NCBI GenBank assembly: GCA_964016885.1
Contig: OZ024740.1
Location: 275,900,001-275,964,000 of the forward strand
Length of the DNA stretch: 64,000 bases
Source of the DNA: Eledone cirrhosa
Lineage: Eukaryota
Direction: 5' to 3'
Shown here: piece by piece, positions 8,893 to 63,898 of the stretch
Layout of the letters: every line of letters begins with the position of its first letter
Position numbering within the stretch: the first letter of the stretch is position 1
Position numbers and translations under genes: made by a program
The notes under the pieces: generated by a model
What the model was told of the DNA's origin: nothing
The model's database searches: none
The model's input: only the letters and a program-made list of their open reading frames with translations

Positions 8893-9539
8893 TATAAAGA
8901 ATTAGTATATCTACCAACATATTTATACAGAAGTATACTTATGGTAGCAAGATATAGGTTTTGTCTTAGTAACTTTGTGGTTCAATACAAAAATCTAGAA
9001 CAATTATATGAAAGACGTAAAATAAGAAAATTATAATAATTAACTTACTTAAGTTTCACTCCAACTAATTAGTTTCTGAAAGGGGATATACATAGTGCTC
9101 AAAACCATGGAGAATTCCTTTCTTCACCAGGGAGTCAATTCTCGGCTAAGATCCCTGGCAATAGGCGGACACAGGGAGTTCAAACAAAAATAATTCAGTG
9201 AATGGAAAAAGAAGCAAGCGCGGACTAAATTTCAAGACACTGAAAATTTCACTACCTTCCCGGTCAGTGGCAAATTCAAAAGAATCAATCACGTGACATC
9301 GAGGTTAATCAGTGAGGAGTGGGGTGTTAAAAAGACAGTAGCCAAAATATTATTATGAATCATAGTAGTAATTCAGGCAAATTTTTGCTCAACAAATAAT
9401 TTGGAGATAATTATAAAGAATTAATATATCTACCAACATATTTATACAGAAGTATACTTATGCTAGCAAGATATAGGTTTTGTCTAAGTAACTTTGTGGT
9501 TTAATACAAAAATGTAGAACAATTATATGAAAGACGTAT
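8893..9539 (-). mobile_element. Retrozyme-like family I, divergent member: about 1.25 tandem copies of a ~519-nt monomer
   Basis: 8893-9018 recurs at 9412-9539 (offset 519). Homologous throughout to the 558-nt array at 62551-63877. Carries an HHR on the minus strand. Confidence 0.8.
9058..9135 (-). ncRNA. Type I hammerhead ribozyme (family I, core A6G mutant)
   Basis: Minus strand: ACUCC-CUGGUGA-a GAAAGG...CCUUUC a-GAAA-CUAAUUAG-UU^GGAGU. Confidence 0.75.
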
Positions 9540-9904
9540 AAATATGCTTCTTTTGATAGGTTGGGGACAAATAATGTTCTTCTTTTACTTCCTAGCTGTA
9601 TATTCTTAGCATAATTTCAAACCCCGAGCAACGCTACTAGTATATATATAAAAGCGAGGATGTATGTGTGTCTGTGGACAACTTTGGACACCTAAGGCTT
9701 TTACAATTCCCAACCGAATTTGACTAAATTTTCTGTGCACGTTGCACCTGTCGCTAGGATGGTCACATCACAAAAAGTTTTCAAATCGACTCATGTTGAG
9801 CAATAGAAAATCGATAACAAAATTATCTATATATATAAAAGCGAGGATGTGTGTGTACAGAGTATGAAAGACCACATGGGTCAGAATCAGTGGTAGAGGA
9901 AACA

Positions 9905-11334: not shown

Positions 11335-12781
11335 TGTATTCGTGATCCTCTGTCCTTGTGGATGAAATATAGGGATGAACTAACAAACGACTATTGCTGC
11401 TTCCAGAAATAGAGGTCGGCTTTAGTAATGAATTATACAACAGAGCTCTCATTGATATTGAGGACAAGTTAGTTCTGATTGCAGGAAAGGTTTTACGTGA
11501 CTACGGTTTACCAGAAACTCATCGCACGGACTCAAACAAACTTCCCACAGATATCAGACAGGAGACTTCTTATGACATCCATGATCTTGGCCTGTATGTC
11601 ACAGATAATGAGCCAAAACTTCTAGCTGATCAGCGACTGGCTTATACCTCCATTACTGGATCGCTATTTCAAAGAAGAGGTGGCATATTTTTCCTCGATT
11701 CTCCAGAGGAGGGGGGGGGGGGGGGGCAGGAAAAACTCTCGTTACTAAACTTCTTGCAACGGTTAGACAGAATAAGGACATAGCAATAGCAGTTGCGTCC
11801 TCTGGAATCGCAGCAACTTTGCTCCCTGGTGGAAGGACGGCACATTCAGTTTTTAAATTGCCCCTTGATTTGGCAAAATTGGAAACTCCTACTTGTCATA
11901 TCACCAAAGACTCCGAAATGGGTTATCTGCTGCGAAGGTGTCACCTTATTGTTTGGGATGAGTGCACAATGGCGCACAAAGGTGCTCTTGAGGCACTATA
12001 CAGGTCTTTGCAAGACATACGGGATTGCAGTGATGTTATGGGGGGGGGGGGGTCACCCTTCTGCTATCAGGAGACTTCAGACAGATTCTTCCTATAATAC
12101 CAAAAGGAACAAGAGCAGATGCGGTAAATGCATGTCTTAAGTCTTCACCATTGTGGCGACATGTGACATCATTAAGACTAACTACCAACATGCGTGCAAG
12201 GTTGCATGGGGACCTTCTGTCATCAACATTTTCTGGAGACATTCTTACAATAGGAGTTGGTAATCTACCTCCGGATACAGATGGACACATAGCAATTGAT
12301 CACATCTGCAATGTAGTTGAACTGTCGATGATCTCAAAGCGAGTGTATTGCCGAACTTGAATGATAACTATACGAGGAAACGCCAGTTATTTTGCTGAGA
12401 AATATCACTCCTCCAAAACTATGCAATGGTACACGCCTTGTGGTTAAAAAACTGTCTCCACTTAGTATTGACGCTACCATTCTATCTGGATGTGGAAAAG
12501 GCGAGGATGAGATAATTACAAAAATTAGCCTGACTATATCAGGCGTGGATACTCCCATCTCCTTTCGCCGAACCCAATTTCCCCTTCGTGTTGCCTTTGC
12601 GATGTCCATAAACAAGTCGCAAGGTCAAACTCTGTCCGTCGCTGGAATTCACTTGGATGAACCTTGCTTTTCGCACAGACAATTCTACGTTGCCTGCCCA
12701 CGAGTTGGCAGTCGAGATAATCTCTTTGTGTTTGTTCCGAAAAGAAAAACAAAGAATATCGTCTATCCTGAAGTGCTTTAG
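11335..12781 (+). pseudogene. Helitron PIF1-family helicase, frameshifted and deleted
   Basis: FFLDSP..G.GK (Walker A, broken in a G run), ASSGIAATLLPGGRTAHSVFKLP, LIVWDECTM, GDFRQILP, LRNITPPKLCNGTRL, QFPLRVAFAMSINKSQGQTL, FSHRQFYVACPRV, KTKNIVYPEVL*. Confidence 0.92.
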
Positions 12782-14959: not shown

Positions 14960-17900
14960 TAACCCGCCCGTCCCTCCAATCTGTCTTTTTTTCATTCTTT
15001 CGCTTGATGAAGGACTAGTGCCCGAAACGTTAAGACCCTCTTCCTGCTATTTCAAGCGTTAACCTAATATATTCCTTCCATATACTGTACCGATTGTGTT
15101 GTTATTTCTGTTTACCTTTTACATACATATATATATATCAATGTTTACGTGGACCTCTCAAATTCGTTCGATTTTCAAATTGGATTTTCACCCCGAAACT
15201 GTATACAAACCCGGAGTATACCCGAACTTCCACCAGGAAATGTTCTTTGCTTCTTGCATTTAAATATTCCACGACTCTCTACCACTTTTCCTCTACTACA
15301 ATCTTCTTACATCACCTTCTTCTTCTCACCCCACTATTTTTCACTCCCACCCTAGTACCTTCAACATGCCCAATCTCAAATCTTTTCTCCGTCAGTTCCA
15401 TTCTTCTCTCAAACGCTCCCTCCAACCTCCCCACCCCTATATGCATCCAATCATCCGTGCGTCTCTCCAACCTCATCTTCACCAAAACAAAATACAACAG
15501 TCACATTAACTTTCTAAGTTGGTGTCTCCACCACCACCTAATTCCCCGAGGTTTCCGCCTCAAGTTCCACCCCACCTCTTACTCTGCTCCTACCACTTAG
15601 CCCTTCCTTACTCGTTCCTCTCGCCAGCTCATGCGGGCGACTATCCGATTAACTCTTGCCCAAATCCGTTCTCTCGACCGAGAACTCCCCAAGGCCTACC
15701 TCCATCTCTCCACCACTTGCCACTCCCTCATCGCCCAATCCCTTATCCAATTCAGCCTTTACTTCACTCGCCTCCTTTTCAATTTCTTCACTTCCATAAA
15801 AAACCACAAACTCCACTCACTCCGCTCCACGCCTGCCGTCACCACCCATACTCATATCACCACCAACCCTAACCCCTCTATCCCATCACCTACCACCGCT
15901 TTCCTCTCCCCACCACTGAATCTGCATACCCTTTGCCCAACCACCTTAACCCCTCCGTCTCCACCCCTTTCACTCCCTCATATCCCTGCACTGAGGCCAT
16001 GTAGCCACCATACCCCAGAACCTACTACTCTCCGAAGCTGAGCACTCACTACTCGCCCGTGGTTTGCGTTTTATACCAACCACAGCTACCTGCGACGAGT
16101 TCCGCACACATGCCGATATTGAAGGATTCTTCCGTCGATTAAAGCTCAAAGCTTTTTTTACGACCCCTCATCATCGACACAGACGGGTGACTTCACTCGT
16201 CTCAGTTGCCGGCAATCACATTGGACGCCAAACTCTGGCCGGTTCAGCATCCTCGACTCCTTTGTCGATACTTGTAGGCGTACTGTGAACCAGTTCCGTT
16301 TCCACCAGCATTCTCGTCGCTCTAACATTACGCGGGCTGAGCTCTCCACTCTTCGAAACCTTCGGCGTCGCGATGGCATTGTCATCAAACCCGGTGACAA
16401 AGGTGGCGCTGTGGTGGTTTGGAGCGTTGGCCTCTATAAGGCTGAGCACTCCACCAGCTTCCCGACCACCTTTTTTCCCCGTCCTTTATCCTCCGACCCC
16501 ACTCCTGGCTACCAACAACTCGTGTCCTCCACCATCCACCAGCTCATCTCCTCTCTCCTAACCCCACAGCCACCAACCTTATTGTACACACCCCTCGCAC
16601 ACCCAACATCTACTTCCTCCCCAAAATATAGAAACAAAATAATCCCGGCCGTCCTATCGTTTCTACGTGTAACTGCACCACTGAGATCAGTTCTGAATAT
16701 TTAGACACCATCCTTGCCCCGTTAATCGTCAATCTCCCCTCCCACATCCACGATACCAATCATGCCCTTAGACACTTTAACTCCTTCTCCTTCCCTCCTG
16801 GCCCCTCTCGCCATCTCTTTACCCTGGACATCACCTCTCTCTATACCGTCATCCCTCATGATGACGGCCTCCGCACTCTCCAACATATTTAGACTTACGC
16901 CCTACCCTTACCCCAGCACTACTACTCTTCTCCGTCTGGTTGAGCTTGTTCTCACCCTCAATCGCTTTTCCTTTTCGGGTGAATTCTATCAGAAGGTCTC
17001 TGAAGTAGCGATGGGAACCAGAATGTGAGCAATCTATGCCAACTTGTTTGTTAGCTACGTCGAAGCCCAGATCTTCTCCCAGTACGCTGGACCTACTCCT
17101 GAGCTATACGGTCGTTATATCGACGACTGTATCGGCACCACCTCTCTATCACGAGAACAGCTCGACTGCTTTCTATCTTTTGTCCTATCTTTCCAACCTG
17201 CTCTCACCTTCACCGTCTCCGATCCTTCTGTCCCTTTTCTATCTATCTCTCTATCTATCAATCACTCTCACCACACCCTCTCTACTTCCATCTTCTATAA
17301 AGCAACAAGACTCACACTCTTACCTCGACTTCACCTCCTCCCATCCAACCCACACCAAACACTCCATACCCTATTCCCAATTCCTCCGTCTTCGTCGGCT
17401 ATGTAGCCAGGACGACGATTTCGAAACCCATTCCCTTCACATGGCTTCCCGCTTTATCCAGCGTGGATATGATCCCACCCTGATGCAAGCTGCTCTCATT
17501 CGCGCCCGTAAAATCGACCGTACCACAGCCCTCTCACCTCACCAGCGCCCTCCCAACGCCCGCGTTCCTTTCCCTCTCACTTACCACCCCATCACCCTAC
17601 CACTCCAACGACATATCCTCCGTTCATTCAGCACCCGTCATTTCTCACTTTTTTCCAAACCCACCTATTACTGCATTTAAGCGCGCCCGCAACCTCCTAC
17701 AACTCCACCTAGCTCTCATCCTTGTTCTCGTCCCCGCTGCAACACTTAACACTTGTCCCTTCATTTCCACCCTCACCACTCTCACAGGCCCTAACTGGTC
17801 TTTCCTTATCTGCCAGTCCTTCACCTGCACCCACGTTGTCTCTGCGCTCCGGTGTTCCCTTTGCGGGTCTTTATACACCGGACAAACAGGACGCCGCATG

Positions 17901-18095
17901 GCGGACCGCTTTGCTGAGCATTTGAGGGACCTATGATTCGGTTTGGATATTCCTGTCGCCCGTCATTTCCGTTCTCCTGGTCATTCTTCCCTTCATGCAT
18001 CAGTCCTAAGTATCTTTTTACATCATAGATCATAGGCCTCACGCACTAGGTTTGAACAGAATCTGATTCACCGCCTTGGGTCCTATTTCCATCAT
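14960..18095 (+). mobile_element. Penelope-like element, Neptune-type (RT + GIY-YIG), decayed
   Basis: N-terminal HINFLSWCL...IPRGF; RT motifs IVIKPGDKGGAVVVW, YFLPKI, PGRPIVS, LDITSLYTVIPHDDGL, VAMGTRM, YGRYIDDCIG, SYLDFTSSHP..SIPYSQFLRLRRLCS; GIY-YIG CSLCGSLYTGQTGRRMADRFAEHLR near 17850-17930. Many frameshifts. Upstream pLTR-like piece with HHR remnant. Confidence 0.88.
15001..15035 (+). ncRNA. Degenerate minimal hammerhead in the Neptune pLTR
   Basis: (C)TTGATGA-AGGACTAGTGCCC-GAAA-CGTTA; core and stem I imperfect. Confidence 0.5.
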
Positions 18096-19403
18096 AGACT
18101 CGTGGAGAGCCGACCAGGAGGTGTAACTGCCCTGATAGATCTACGTGCCCCCTCAACAACAGATGCCGAGAACGTAACGTGATCTACCAATGCAACGTGA
18201 GGACGGAAAACTCCAACAAATCCTATATACGATTAACAGCTTGTGACTTTAAGACCCGGCTCTACCAACACCGACATACGTTTAGAAACCCGGCCCGGCG
18301 ACATTCCAGTACACTTTCGGGCCACATCTGGGACCTCCAAGATAATAACATCACATACCATCTTACTTGGAGCTTACTTTCCAGGGCTAACTCCTACACG
18401 GGCGAATGCGGTCCGTGTAACTTATGCTCAGAGGAAACAATACAAATGCTGTTTACGAAGGACCAACACCTAAACAAAAAAGACGAACTTGTAACCGCAT
18501 GTAAACACCGATTGTGTAGGACTTACCTCGCCCTCAAACCCCCTCATGACTCGGGTGGGTAGACAATAGCTGTACCATCCTTCTTTTCCCCACTTACCGA
18601 ACAAGATAGGGGAAACCCCAGCATACATAGGTAGATGTACTTCTTTTCTTTTTTTCCCTTTATCTCTTCTTCTCACTTCCTTTCACTCCCTCTCCTTTTC
18701 CTTTTTTCTCTTACGCTTACCCTGAGGCAGCCCATCGGGCGTTTGTAGCCACAGTACCCCCACCCCAGTAAATTCTATATAGCATTGGCCGAAAACGCAA
18801 TACCAGCTAAAAATATGTTTTAGACGCAATACCAGCTAAAAATATGTTTTAGACTCTAGTTTTTTTTATTATCTTTTATTATTTAATTTTTTAATATTAT
18901 TTTTATTTATTATATTTTAAATTTTTAATTTCAATTTATTAACTTTTTGATTTTTTAATTTTATAAATTCCCACACCCAGATTCCTCCAGATTTCTTTTT
19001 CCGCCTGCTTTCTAGCTAGCCTAATTTCATCAACACTCCTAAGAATTTGCCGTATAGAGTTCACTTTCAACGCTTGACCGGCTCCACCCACTCCCTCGTT
19101 GTTCTACAGGCAAGTTCAGCCAACCCCACCCTCCGCCATGAAAGATTTAACTGTGTTTACAAGAAATTTTGACCAATCATTTTGACAACTACAATCTTCC
19201 CATATAAGGAAGTACCCCGTTGAGAAGTTCGGCTATTTATTCACCAGCTAAAAATTCTAATTTAGTCCAGAAATAGCTGTCGAAACGGCTTGAGCTCCGC
19301 CGTCGGAGTCTTGAACATTTTCCTAATACACACTCTACTAGCCTAAGTATTGGGTACTCTAGTGGGTTATGGTCCACCTGGTTCCTTACCACACTTCCTT
19401 CGT

Positions 19404-20404: not shown

Positions 20405-20583
20405 GAACGAGTAGGACCCCGACGGCTGAGCTCAAGCCGTTTCGACGGCTAATTCTGGACTAGAATTAGCCGTCGAAACGGCTTGAGCTCAGCCGTTGGG
20501 GTCCTACTCGTTCCTATTACCCACTCTACTACCCTAAGTATTGAGTTATGGTCCACCTGGTTCCTTACCACATTTCCTTCGTT
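20402..20583. mobile_element. Family A fold-back palindrome in (TA)n
   Basis: Arms GGAACGAGTAGGACCCC...AATTCT and AGAATT...GGGGTCCTACTCGTTCC around GGACT (~20459); the right arm runs on to ...CCTTCGTT. Confidence 0.9.
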
Positions 20584-23045: not shown

Positions 23046-23401
23046 ATGTATGTATATATATATATATATACATAATACTGTACACATATATGTATGTACG
23101 TATACATACTTATATTTAAGTAACAGCCGTACTAAGAGTGAGAAATGAAATTTCGTTTCATTCTTTTCCATTTATCGTTTTCGGTGCGCCCGGCCGACTA
23201 ACTCACTCGATATGCAAATTAGGCTGCTCAGCCGTTAATATGCATAAGGAAAGTATATACTTTCAAATGTTCAATCATCTGACAGAAAGATACACAATGC
23301 TGACGATAGCTAATAAGCTTGAAACTAGTATACATACTTTTATTTAGGTATCAGCCGTACTAAAAGGGAGAAATGAAATTTCGTTTCATTCTTTTCCATT
23401 T
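22922..23401 (+). mobile_element. Retrozyme-like family F, partial tandem with hammerhead core at 23300-23330
   Basis: The 3' segment TACATACTT...TTTTCCATTT occurs twice (23103-23173, 23331-23400); CUGACGA-uAGCUaauaAGCUu-GAAA-CUAG-UA. Confidence 0.8.
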
Positions 23402-36993: not shown

Positions 36994-37326
36994 AATGGAA
37001 ACTATATTTATAAAACCATAATTATTTTATTATATATATTTCAAGGGCAACCAAGGTAGTTTTGGTGCGCTTTCATCAGATAAAATACAAAATTTGTTTA
37101 TAAATGTTCAACATTTATAAAACAAATTTTGTATTTTATCTGATGAAAGCGCACCAAAACTACCTTGGTTGCCCTTGAAATATATATAATGAAATAATTA
37201 TGGTTTTATAAATATAGTTTCCATTGATTAATATATTGAATATTTACTCCAGTAAACTGTTGAGTGCTTTATATCAGTTATAAAACTTTTAAGCTTGTTG
37301 AATTCCAACAAATTAAATAAAACTTC

Positions 37327-58807: not shown

Positions 58808-59597
<790 letters not shown>

Positions 59598-59602
<5 letters not shown>

Positions 59603-60117
59603 AAAGAATAGAGGTGTAACACACAAGTTATTATATATTGGTAAACGGAATAGAAAATGCTGACAAATTGTTCACAGTTGAAAAATGGTTTAATTAGGAA
59701 TAAAAGAGTATTAGTGATTGTATGGGTTAGTATTCAGTTGTGGTTTTAAGTTTTTAAGTTTTTACCGGTTGCGCATTTCTAAATGCTTTTCAAAAATAAT
59801 TTTGAGATAGAGTGTCCGTGCTGTTTGCTCTGATCTGATTAGTTTTGGGAATTCTACCTGTTTTTATGTTAAAAAAATGGCTCCAGCGTTATTTTTGTGT
59901 TGTAAAAATGCTTGTGGTCAAAACAATTTTGATTGGTCGGTAGAGGTCATGTGAATGTAAAAAGTTGATTTTGCGCCAAGACTGTTTTTATGTTAAAATG
60001 TTAGAAAAGTGGCTCCAGCAAAAATTATGGTCAAAACAATTTTGATTGGTCGGTAGAGGTCATGTGGATAAAAAATTGGTTTTGCGCCAAGATTGAGAAA
60101 TGACTCTTTCACAACAA

Positions 60118-60199
<82 letters not shown>

Positions 60200-60594
60200 T
60201 AGTAGTAGTAGTAAGGTGTTCGATGCTGCGACAATAGCCACCAGCGATGTGTGTCAAATGGCTATTAAGATAAGTGTGTGTGTGTGTGTGTGTGTGTGTG
60301 CGTACATACACACAGCAGAGTCATTCGAAGGTCAAAAGATATTTTTCAGCTTTTGTCTTATACGGAGAAGTGCGTGTGTGTGTGTGTGTGTGTGTATAAG
60401 TCTCTTTGTATGTTGATGTACGCGTGTGTATGTGTTTGTGTATATATGTGTGTGTGTGTGTGCGTGTGTGGGTGGACCAGTATTTTTTTCCCCCCTGGTA
60501 AAATGGTGTACATTATTCGATTTTTTCAGTAAAATCGGTTCTCTTAATAGAACATCAACAATCTTAACAATAAAAGGTGTGAAATGATATTCAC

Positions 60595-60626
<32 letters not shown>

Positions 60627-61638
60627 TATATATATATTTTCACTACATATATATATATATATATATACATATATACATACATATATATGCACATATATTT
60701 TTTTGTATTGCACCATAGAGCATGTGTGTTTACGTGTGTCATTGTGTTTATATGTGGGTAGAGATGTGTGCTGATGTAGGTATGTATGTTGACGTGTGTA
60801 TGTTGTGGGTTCGTCTTAGGGAGAAGTGTTTAGACGGGGTCCGTATTTGTTAATGAAGTAAGATTCCTTGCTGATGCGCTGGGTGTGGGTGGCATTATCT
60901 TTAAATTTGTAGAGGGGAAAGATTCTGAAGTTGGGATGATTTTGGGCGGCGCAGGTATCAATGTGTTCACTCAGTGGTATTTTCCTGTATTCCCGTATTT
61001 TAATTTGGGATCTATGGACAGTCATGCGTTGGCGGAGGCTGTTTTGGGTCTGGCCTATGTATTGTTCTCGACAACCTGAACAAGTTAATACATATATTAA
61101 ATTTTCCGATGCACATGTGAAATTGTGTTTTACTATAAAACGTTGTCCATCTTTGAAATAGAATTCCGAACCCTCTATTAGGTTGATGCAAATGCCACAG
61201 TTGGGTCTATCGCATTTTTTTACTGTGGGTTTCGTTGTTGTAGTTGGCAGTACTTTGGCATGTGTTAAGATGTTTTTCATTGACTTGGATTGTCTTTTGC
61301 TCTTTATGATATCGTGTGTTCGTAGAATTTGGTTCATTCTATGGTCCTTTTTCAATACAGGGATGTTCTGGAGGATGGTGTCAAAGGCCTCGTTGTTGAG
61401 GGGGTTGTGTGTGGAGATGTATGGAAGAGCTTTTAGTTTTGGTTGATTTACTTTAGGGTGTCTAACACTCTATCTCAAAATTATTTTTGAAAAGCATTTA
61501 GAAATGCGCAACCGGTAAAAACTTAAAAACTTAAAACCACAACTGAATACTAACCCATACAATCACTAATACTCTTTTATTCCTAATTAAACCATTTTTC
61601 AACTGCGAACAATTTGTCAGCATTTTCTATTCCGTTTA

Positions 61639-61645
<7 letters not shown>
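59598..61645 (-). mobile_element. Penelope-like element, Neptune-type 3' part with inverted pLTR (family H)
   Basis: 59638-59816 is inverted at 61465-61643. HHR-like UUU-UUGAAAA-GCAUU..AAUGC-GCAA-CCGG-UA^AAA at 61484-61520 (+) and about 59759-59797 (-). The microsatellite-rich middle may include other insertions. Confidence 0.75.
60816..61443 (-). pseudogene. 5'-truncated PLE ORF: Zn-finger plus GIY-YIG endonuclease (Neptune-type)
   Basis: KCDRPNCGIC...FTCASENLIYVLTCSGCREQYIGQTQNSLRQRMTVHRSQI...H...ESYFINKY.P.LN. Confidence 0.9.
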
Positions 61646-62095: not shown

Positions 62096-62300
62096 AACGG
62101 AGGAAATGTGGTAAGGAACCAGGTGGACCATAACGCACCAAAGTACTCAATACTTAGGGTAGTAGAGAGTAGAGTGGGTAATAGGAACAAATAAGACCCC
62201 GACGGCTGAGCTCAAGTCGTTTCGGCGGCTAATTCTCTAATCATAGAATTAGCCGTCGATACGGCTTGAGCTCAGCCGTCGGGGTCTTATTTGTTCCTAT
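62096..62300. mobile_element. Family A fold-back palindrome
   Basis: Centre AATTCT-CTAATCAT-AGAATT near 62240; short arm ends GTTCCTAT. Confidence 0.9.
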
Positions 62301-62508: not shown

Positions 62509-62555
<47 letters not shown>

Positions 62556-62621
62556 GACGTAAAATAAGAAAATATTTTTTTAAAAAAATTTAAAAAAAAT
62601 TTTTTTCTTACTTAAATTTTC

Positions 62622-62703
62622 ACTCCAACTAATTAGTTTCTGCAATGGGATAAAGACAGTTACGTAATCCAACTGTCGAGAATTCATTGCGTCATCAGGA
62701 AGT
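62622..62703 (-). ncRNA. Canonical-core type I hammerhead (family I, copy 1)
   Basis: ACUUC-CUGAUGA-cGCAAUG..GACAGUU..AACUGUC..CAUUGCa-GAAA-CUAAUUAG-UU^GGAGU. Confidence 0.88.
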
Positions 62704-63179
62704 CTATTCTCAGTTAAGTCTCCAGGCAATGCGCGGACACTGGCGGCTCATATAAAAATAATAATAATTCGGTAGATCTAACAGCTTGCGAGGACTGGAT
62801 TCTATGTACCGAAATTCTCACTGCTTCAAGTCAAATGGCCGATTCTAAAGAATCAATCACGTGACACAGAGGCTAGTTAGAAGGAATGGGATGGTAAGAT
62901 GACTGACGCCTACTAACACCCCAAAAAAAATTTTTTTAGAAGTGGTTTTGACAAGTTTGCTCGACAAATCAGTGATTTGGAGATAAATATAGATAATTTA
63001 ATATATCAACTAACATAAGCGCACAGATGCACGCCCATGCCAGCAAATACACAGGTTATGTCATAGTACCTAGGTGGTTCAATGCAGGAGAATGCAGAAC
63101 AATAATATAAAGGACGTAAAATAAGAAAATATTTTTTTAAAAAAAATTTAAAAAAAAATTTTTTCTTACTTAAATTTTC

Positions 63180-63261
63180 ACTCCAACTAATTAGTTTCTG
63201 CAATGGGATAAAGACAGTTACGTAATCCAACTGTCGAGAATTCATTGCGTCATCAGGAAGT
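63180..63261 (-). ncRNA. Type I hammerhead (family I, copy 2)
   Basis: Identical to copy 1. Confidence 0.88.
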
Positions 63262-63736
63262 CTATTCTCAGTTAAGTCTCCAGGCAATGCGCGGACACTG
63301 GCGGCTCATATAAAAATAATAATAATTCGGTAGATCTAACAGCTTGCGAGGACTGGATTCTATGTACCGAAATTCTCACTGCTTCAAGTCAAATGGCCGA
63401 TTCTAAAGAATCAATCACGTGACACAGAGGCTAGTTAGAAGGAATGGGATGGTAAGATGACTGACGCCTACTAACACCCCAAAAAAAATTTTTTTAGAAG
63501 TGGTTTTGACAAGTTTGCTCGACAAATCAGTGATTTGGAGATAAATATAGATAATTTAATATATCAACTAACATAAGCGCACAGATGCACGCCCATGCCA
63601 GCAAATACACAGGTTATGTCATAGTACCTAGGTGGTTCAATGCAGGAGAATGCAGAACAATAATATAAAGGACGTAAAATAAGAAAATATTTTTTTAAAA
63701 AAATTTAAAAAAATTTTTTTTCTTACTTAAATTTTC

Positions 63737-63818
63737 ACTCCAACTAATTAGTTTCTGCAATGGGATAAAGACAGTTACGTAATCCAACTGTCGAGAATTC
63801 ATTGCGTCATCAGGAAGT
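63737..63818 (-). ncRNA. Type I hammerhead (family I, copy 3)
   Basis: Identical to copy 1. Confidence 0.88.
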
Positions 63819-63898
63819 CTATTCTCAGTTAAGTCTCCAGGCAATGCGCGGACACTGGCGGCTCATATAAAAATAATATATATAAAATATATATATAT

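Follow-up and report, generated by a model that had tools for sequence, protein, structure and literature searches.

Predicted twin RNA hairpins with a shared loop motif beside a hammerhead ribozyme in a Penelope-like retrozyme family of Eledone cirrhosa

Two copies of a repeat in the window (the whole 64,000-nucleotide stretch of Eledone cirrhosa DNA analyzed here) raise the question of what two hairpins with a common loop sequence are doing just upstream of a ribozyme. The first-pass annotation had compared the copies at 9.1 and 62.7 kb, proposing that selection acts on the RNA and that the twin loops might recruit a reverse transcriptase (RT), bind a protein or form a tertiary contact. The two copies are as follows:

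8893..9544, minus strand: copy of the older subfamily S8, about 1.25 units of 519 nt (self-BLAST)
62553..63878, minus strand: array of the young subfamily S7, about 2.4 units of 558 nt (self-BLAST)

The S8 copy has siblings that are 95-97% identical and its 3' end falls at the second of two insertion sites described below, while the S7 units are 99.5-99.6% identical to each other and flanked by (TA)n tracts. No stop-to-stop frame of at least 120 aa overlaps either copy. A complete type I hammerhead is present in every tandem unit, with three cores spaced 557-558 nt apart in the window, and the intact core pattern has 8,244 exact matches in the 3.0-Gb genome as opposed to 0 for a reversed control pattern. 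Units span approximately 500-570 nt, with cut-to-cut monomers of 504-573 nt at many loci, and copies occur as partial tandems and inverted truncated pieces enclosed by (TA)n tracts. Coding-free tandem units with type I hammerheads define the non-LTR retrozymes (PMC7229834), recently argued to be non-autonomous derivatives of Penelope-like elements (PLEs; 10.64898/2026.07.22.740005), and we are highly confident that this repeat is one. As described in these two sources, metazoan non-LTR retrozymes share with it the coding-free tandem units, one type I hammerhead each, low GC content, thousands of copies and co-existing autonomous PLEs. The units here, at 500-570 nt, are longer than the 170-400 nt given for invertebrates (PMC7229834) and fall inside the 51-972 bp range of Li et al. 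2026 (10.64898/2026.07.22.740005); the family also differs from the metazoan retrozymes described there in that its stem II is extended and contains an internal loop.

Partial tandems, inverted truncated copies, (TA)n targets and two 3' ends are Penelope-like traits (PMC8557442, PMC11167929), and by these the family is a non-autonomous PLE. The parallel with PLE pseudo-LTRs extends to the 5' truncation of the inverted copies and the alternative use of the two 3' ends, and their hammerheads likewise have a base inserted between positions 9 and 10.1 of the core, an invariant G10.1-C11.1 pair and a palindromic helix III (PMC4209133, PMC8557442, PMC11167929). Unlike a PLE, the family has no ORF, its two ends lie approximately 115 nt apart rather than delimiting a 30-40 bp tail, and an added invariant A before GAAA in its hammerhead leaves the base of stem II mismatched as C·A (or A·A). 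The element class is already known, and what appears new, as a variant, is the twin loop together with a long, pseudoknotted stem II; a literature search that left most subscription journals, Repbase and Dfam outside its reach returned no description of twin conserved loops in retrozymes. Adjacent units were mutually closest relative to all other copies in only 4 of 24 pairs in a test for rolling-circle origin, one that says little about old copies. The unit sequence is present in contigs of four sequencing runs of unrecorded kind, a matter of presence only, and two further organisms have low-depth contigs with matches to parts of it, reflecting either a relative or contamination. A different repeat family that targets (TA)n and shows inverted junctions (62,100-62,290, 20,420-20,580 and 19,220-19,400) adjoins the retrozyme family.

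Targeted pattern searches yielded 322 copies, a sample biased by the search patterns; 188 of them are distinct, full-length sequences. Clustering placed 154 of the 188 in 16 clusters of at least three copies, and the 28 clusters of one or two copies (34 copies) were left out. Because private changes acquired after insertion are neutral (their rate is approximately 4-20 per 1000 across almost every class of site), we compared the majority sequences of the 16 subfamilies, and covariation was assessed against 2000 tree simulations that preserve each column's number of changes, with pairing registers set by hand on the same sequences and a tree holding few independent events. About half of the ungapped columns are unchanged across subfamilies, and the region upstream of the ribozyme is conserved as a whole, with 65 of 140 columns invariant. 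Folding of the hairpin region in a single copy is unremarkable relative to shuffles (z of -1.86 at 9.1 kb and +0.44 at 62.7 kb), and a GC-rich 7-of-8 repeat arises by chance in 17-26 of 300 shuffles; the evidence for the hairpins and their loops therefore comes from the family comparison alone.

The ribozyme provides the reference against which the hairpins can be judged:

9058..9135, minus strand: type I hammerhead of the S8 copy (stem I 9131-9135/9058-9062; stem II 9117-9122/9078-9083; palindromic stem III 9064-9073; core 9124-9130, mutated to CUGGUGA, and 9073-9076; predicted cut between 9063 and 9062)
62622..62711, minus strand: intact hammerhead of the first S7 unit (core 62692-62698; stem II 62685-62690/62642-62647; pseudoknot 62707-62711/62678-62682; predicted cut between 62627 and 62626), recurring at 63185 and 63742

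Read along the minus strand, a 5-bp stem I leads into CUGAUGA and one added base, then a 6-bp stem II; the added A and GAAA come next, before the palindromic stem III ACUAAUUAGU with GUU as the cut site. These are the core and helices I-III of a type I hammerhead, with helix I open. Across the 16 subfamilies the core has 0 changes over 11 sites and stem III 0 over 10. A6 of the hammerhead core is important, and since CUGGUGA occurs in only 2 of the 188 parsed copies, compared with 166 carrying CUGAUGA, the 9.1 kb ribozyme is probably inactive. Rfam returned nothing at gathering score and no hammerhead family at E values up to 10, the three matches that did appear (E 0.76-8.3) being at chance level. 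Twenty-seven short-stem cores with the same stem III were read as deletion variants of the retrozyme family. Hammerhead-like motifs also lie elsewhere, at 23,300 (plus strand), 39,912 (minus strand), 37,079-37,140, 38,366 and 38,995 and at sampled loci L096, L218, L228 and L138, and the sampled DNA holds approximately eight or more further recurring hammerhead-like families, of which the examples checked carry no twin loop.

The first-pass annotation had read the change from GAAAGG/CCTTTC to GCAATG/CATTGC in stem II as compensatory, and this holds well beyond the two copies it compared: both strings are present on the minus strand and the covariation is strong family-wide. The outer part of stem II is Watson-Crick in 94 of 96 cells, with one pair occurring in all four Watson-Crick types, all four inner pairs show compensatory change, and the number of paired cells in stem II exceeds that in every one of the 2000 simulations. 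Tandem-repeat hammerheads with compensatory changes are known from newt satellite 2 and cricket pDo500 (PMC2837043). The non-ribozyme part of pDo500 is described there as less conserved, in contrast to the loop motif outside the ribozyme here, which is invariant.

A further element, absent from the first-pass list, connects the ribozyme to the sequence upstream of it:

9110..9143, minus strand: predicted pseudoknot, GAGAA 9139-9143 with UUCUC 9110-9114 in the internal loop of stem II

GAGAA lies directly 5' of stem I and is complementary to UUCUC in all 16 subfamilies (78 Watson-Crick and 2 GU of 80 cells), and the pairing reaches 97.8% on 18 real copies. Two sister subfamilies account for both of the changes seen (G-C to A-U; A-U to G·U); simulated alignments were as well paired in 50 of 2000 runs and had a compensatory pair in 190 of 2000, so that the pairing is weakly supported in statistical terms. 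On this pattern of complementarity, GAGAA/UUCUC is likely a loop-loop pseudoknot that would serve as the tertiary contact of the ribozyme. Pseudoknots of such type are needed for fast cleavage in other hammerheads, and the predicted pairing resembles that of the pseudoknot-stabilized hammerheads of Perreault et al. 2011 in its 5 bp and its use of the stem I and stem II regions, differing from those described there in that it engages the internal loop of a long stem II and that its 5' strand can alternatively extend hairpin 1 (PMC3088659). The base right after the 3' strand of the pseudoknot varies even between units of one locus (subfamilies S1, S3 and S4; e.g. L234-L236).

Upstream of the ribozyme lie the two hairpins at issue, together with a third:

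9148..9181, minus strand: hairpin 1 of S8, 10-bp stem, GUCC at 9167-9170
9194..9244, minus strand: hairpin 2 of S8, outer 7 bp plus inner 5 bp plus AG/CU, GUCC at 9222-9225
62716..62749, minus strand: hairpin 1 of S7, loop motif 62731-62738
62768..62813, minus strand: hairpin 2 of S7, loop motif 62788-62795
9252..9273, minus strand: third small hairpin, with an invariant GAC at 9263-9265 in an otherwise variable loop

All of the stem strings quoted in the first-pass annotation were found (9154-9175 and 62722-62743 for hairpin 1, 9194-9244 and 62768-62813 for hairpin 2), and the wider family modifies how they are to be read. Hairpin 1, given as a change from CCTG/CAGG to CCAG/CTGG, has a 10-bp stem, and the pair that compensates between the two copies is U·U in 6 of 16 subfamilies; in hairpin 2, given as TTCAGTG/CACTGAA changing to TTCGGTA/TACCGAA, one outer pair is A·C in 11 of 16. 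Overall, hairpin 1 comprises 131 Watson-Crick, 12 G·U, 9 A·C and 8 other cells (n=160) with four compensatory pairs, and hairpin 2 has three compensatory pairs among 13. Taken together, 7 of 23 pairs occur in two Watson-Crick types compared with 1.77 expected, a result reached in 1 of 2000 simulations (14 of 2000 for hairpin 1 and 26 of 2000 for hairpin 2 tested singly), and four of the seven remain when the two originally compared subfamilies are removed. The total number of paired cells in the two hairpins is not above the null (123 of 2000 simulations), with many A·C and U·U mismatches tolerated, and the third hairpin has no compensatory pair among the 16 subfamilies.

The full structure model pairs 85.8% of cells on 18 real copies, as opposed to 33-54% when slid along the sequence. 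Automatic consensus folding of those copies recovered hairpin 1 and stem II and not hairpin 2, the inner part of which was recovered from the subfamily sequences. Paired-looking changes are also seen by eye in other hairpins of the unit, so RNA folding is a property of the whole monomer. We conclude that hairpins 1 and 2 are very probably real RNA hairpins and that the proposed selection at the RNA level is borne out, strongly for the stem II domain and moderately for the two hairpins.

Both hairpins present a common loop motif, GUCC-N-C(G)(C)-2 or 3 nt-GC, throughout the 16 subfamilies. The GUCC(G/U)C that the first-pass annotation saw in both loops is therein retained as a conserved shared motif, with its fifth position relaxed to A, C, G, U or nothing. 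Over 12 sites GUCC and the closing GC never change, in contrast to N, which changed 6 and 4 times in the two loops; private mutation rates at these sites are similar. Loop 1's seven invariant positions all fall among the eight of loop 2, an overlap expected by arithmetic in 8 of 1716 arrangements. The motif is family-specific (335 of 337 matches within approximately 1 Mb of sampled DNA), and both loops are intact in 144 of the 188 copies. Conservation above the flanks is a modest excess, the loops being invariant at 15 of 24 sites compared with 24 of 57 other unpaired upstream sites (Fisher p 0.076, or p 0.034 without the interiors of U-runs). Together with the half of ungapped columns that never change, this p value would be consistent with the shared loop being a recent duplication devoid of specific function, its invariance reflecting few independent events; the invariance of the same positions, the hypervariability of the same N and the unrelated sequences of the two stems make such an origin highly improbable.

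We instead favor, with moderate confidence, twin hairpins in the retrozyme RNA that present their loops to an RNA-binding protein. From the sequence pattern, a tandem protein-binding site is the best option for the loops, at about an even chance of being right. The loops may resemble the sites of U1A, nucleolin and ZNF143. The RNA of the newt satellite 2 hammerhead is reported to occur in an RNP (PMC2837043), and a protein-assisted PLE ribozyme has been reported (PMC11167929).

The twin words could also be read on DNA. Upstream of the hairpins lies a further conserved word:

9281..9297, strand unassigned: near-invariant GTCACGTG (1 change over 9 sites) plus ATTGATT (1 over 7)

The word, GTCACGTGATTGATT at 9281-9297 and 62,849-62,865, is E-box-like, and it is likely a DNA promoter element as judged from its conservation. 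CACGTG or CCAAT words are also present in the UTRs of autonomous elements, which suggests that they and the retrozyme family share a promoter design. Loop 2 follows the E-box-like word after approximately 63 nt. In Penelope, the corresponding part of the repeat contains an internal promoter (PMC2377424), and in vitro insertion of an Anolis element did not need the sequence upstream of its ribozyme (PMC11167929), all of which could fit twin words that act as promoter or enhancer sites, lie downstream of this E-box-like word and arose by internal duplication, with stems that reflect general folding of the RNA or of single-stranded cDNA. The wobble pairs may point in the same direction for one hairpin: the outer stem of hairpin 2 has 15 A·C and 0 G·U among 112 cells, a bias that would suit the opposite strand, compared with 12 G·U and 9 A·C in hairpin 1 and a preference for G·U in the ribozyme helices. 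Against DNA sites, both words cap covarying stems and are closed by an invariant G-C, and the motif tolerates a deletion of N (once) and a 1-nt change in length, with inter-loop spacing varying by 3-6 nt. Since indels inside the motif suit an RNA loop better than a DNA site, we regard the DNA reading as rather unlikely.

The loops could also make a tertiary contact within the RNA, such as a kissing interaction between GUC and the third hairpin's GAC that compacts the monomer or aids ligation. In its favor, all 16 subfamilies have GAC in that loop among bases that otherwise vary, as do 149 of the 165 copies parsed. The contact would amount to 3 bp, a single GAC cannot pair with two loops simultaneously, and GGAC is found on the RNA strand in 0 of 16 subfamily sequences; covariation is absent because both sides are invariant. 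As no base-paired partner longer than 3 nt was found in the 16 subfamily sequences, the tertiary motif suggested by the first-pass annotation is improbable.

Recruitment of a helper RT, perhaps with one loop per subunit of a dimer, would accord with the predicted dimerization of the PLE protein (PMC11167929). Its assessment depends on where insertions end. Among 364 ribozyme copies with enough flank, 138 have 3' ends at or near site 1, approximately 56-79 nt 3' of the cut, and 87 end at site 2, approximately 172-184 nt 3' of the cut; of the rest, 51 read on into a following unit, the tail is interrupted in 77 and the first site is missing from 11.

9005..9035, minus strand: conserved 3'-terminal segment ending at insertion site 1

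Site 1 is likely the RT start. Its word, TTTTCTT-N6-10-GTCT(T/C), is common to one autonomous family, where it occurs at 6 of 8 ends compared with 4 of 16,800 shuffles for a pattern chosen post hoc, and is also seen by eye in a second. On sequence grounds this word would be a better candidate RT signal than the twin loops. The SINE-type concept holds that an RT-binding stem-loop is common to the SINE and its helper's 3' UTR; that sharing is not seen for the exact motif in the helper UTRs examined, and in this family the loops lie 5' of the ribozyme and insertions end 3' of it.

Helpers were sought among 46 GIY-YIG loci in seven clusters, taken from the 150 matches listed of 10,596 candidates. 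The exact loop or hammerhead is present in the 3' UTR of 0 of these 46 loci (one match lies 3.5 kb downstream, past the end of the element), so the loop that the first-pass annotation expected in autonomous PLE 3' UTRs is absent from them. Among the same loci, no autonomous partner with pseudo-LTR homology was found, the short 3'-end word alone being common to both, and all seven matches to a loop placed before a hammerhead with a 14-nt spacer belong to the retrozyme family. Two autonomous families contain weak look-alikes that could favor recruitment. One scores 14.3 (training minimum 13.0; 0 of 60 shuffles) and is intact in 8 of 15 copies, with no closing stem discernible by eye, which tells against it; the other scores 10.2 (1 and 5 of 60 shuffles). 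An uncut or circular template would also place the loops 150-330 nt from the start sites. A reverse-complement look-alike in the UTR of the element with a 784-aa frame was dropped, as it varies among copies.

In the Anolis element, the protein-binding region and the RT starts both lie 3' of the ribozyme (PMC11167929). Because of this location, the 3' position of the insertion ends and the lack of the exact loop in the 46 helper loci, RT recruitment by the loops is disfavored, and we consider it quite unlikely.

Other autonomous or degenerate elements were also noted. A very young autonomous PLE is represented at 59,590-61,640 of the window by a 5'-truncated copy with an inverted terminal piece and a GIY-YIG domain at 60816-61469; 150 scored copies are 98-100% identical, many copies have a 784-aa frame with RT and GIY-YIG, and the CX4CXXC linker makes the GIY-YIG Neptune-like (criterion of PMC8557442). 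Several autonomous families contain hammerhead-like cores with a U3-A8 change, namely UUGAAAA, UUGAUAA and UUGACAA (approximately 59,760-59,800 on the minus strand; L328, L335 and L329), and in the young family GCAA replaces GAAA. A degenerate distant PLE at 15,000-18,050 (plus strand), with approximately 24% identity to the 784-aa protein, is preceded by a hammerhead-like word with a UUGAUGA core near 15,005-15,030. PIF1-type helicase fragments at 11,630-12,781 (plus strand) are probably a Helitron remnant.

With protein binding as the preferred reading, a life cycle can be outlined. An internal promoter near the E-box-like word would drive read-through transcripts, which the hammerheads would cut to monomers, aided by the GAGAA/UUCUC pseudoknot; given the short palindromic stem III, they probably cut as dimers (PMC4209133). 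Monomers may circularize, and copying into (TA)n by a trans-acting Penelope-like RT/GIY-YIG protein would begin approximately 56-79 or 172-184 nt 3' of the cut. Circular monomers were available for 13 of the 16 subfamilies, and 11 were parsed with a folding model that ignores pseudoknots. Folding favors the ribozyme strand over its complement in 10 of 11, hairpin 1 has pairing probabilities of 0.56-0.98 in all 11 and hairpin 2 falls to 0-0.14 in 5 of 11. Stem I is unformed in 11 of 11, and GAGAA pairs with a U-rich linker below hairpin 1 in 7 of 11 and does not in 4. These modeled folds suggest a possible linker-based ribozyme switch. The most speculative step, which we judge unlikely as it stands, adds a host or PLE protein that would bind both loops and, at hairpin 1, favor the basal extension that sequesters GAGAA, turning off the hammerhead in the monomer or circle.

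Animal retrozyme circles reportedly retain a ribozyme expected to cut them, and a block has been postulated (Cervera and De la Peña, PMC7229834); if true, a protein-gated switch would be that missing block. RNA choice by Penelope-like proteins has been tested in one element only (PMC11167929). Both the circle block and RNA choice become testable with few mutants in this family, given its 16 naturally diverged subfamilies, one of them young and near-identical, its defined loop motif, its mapped insertion ends and the pseudoknot predicted for it.
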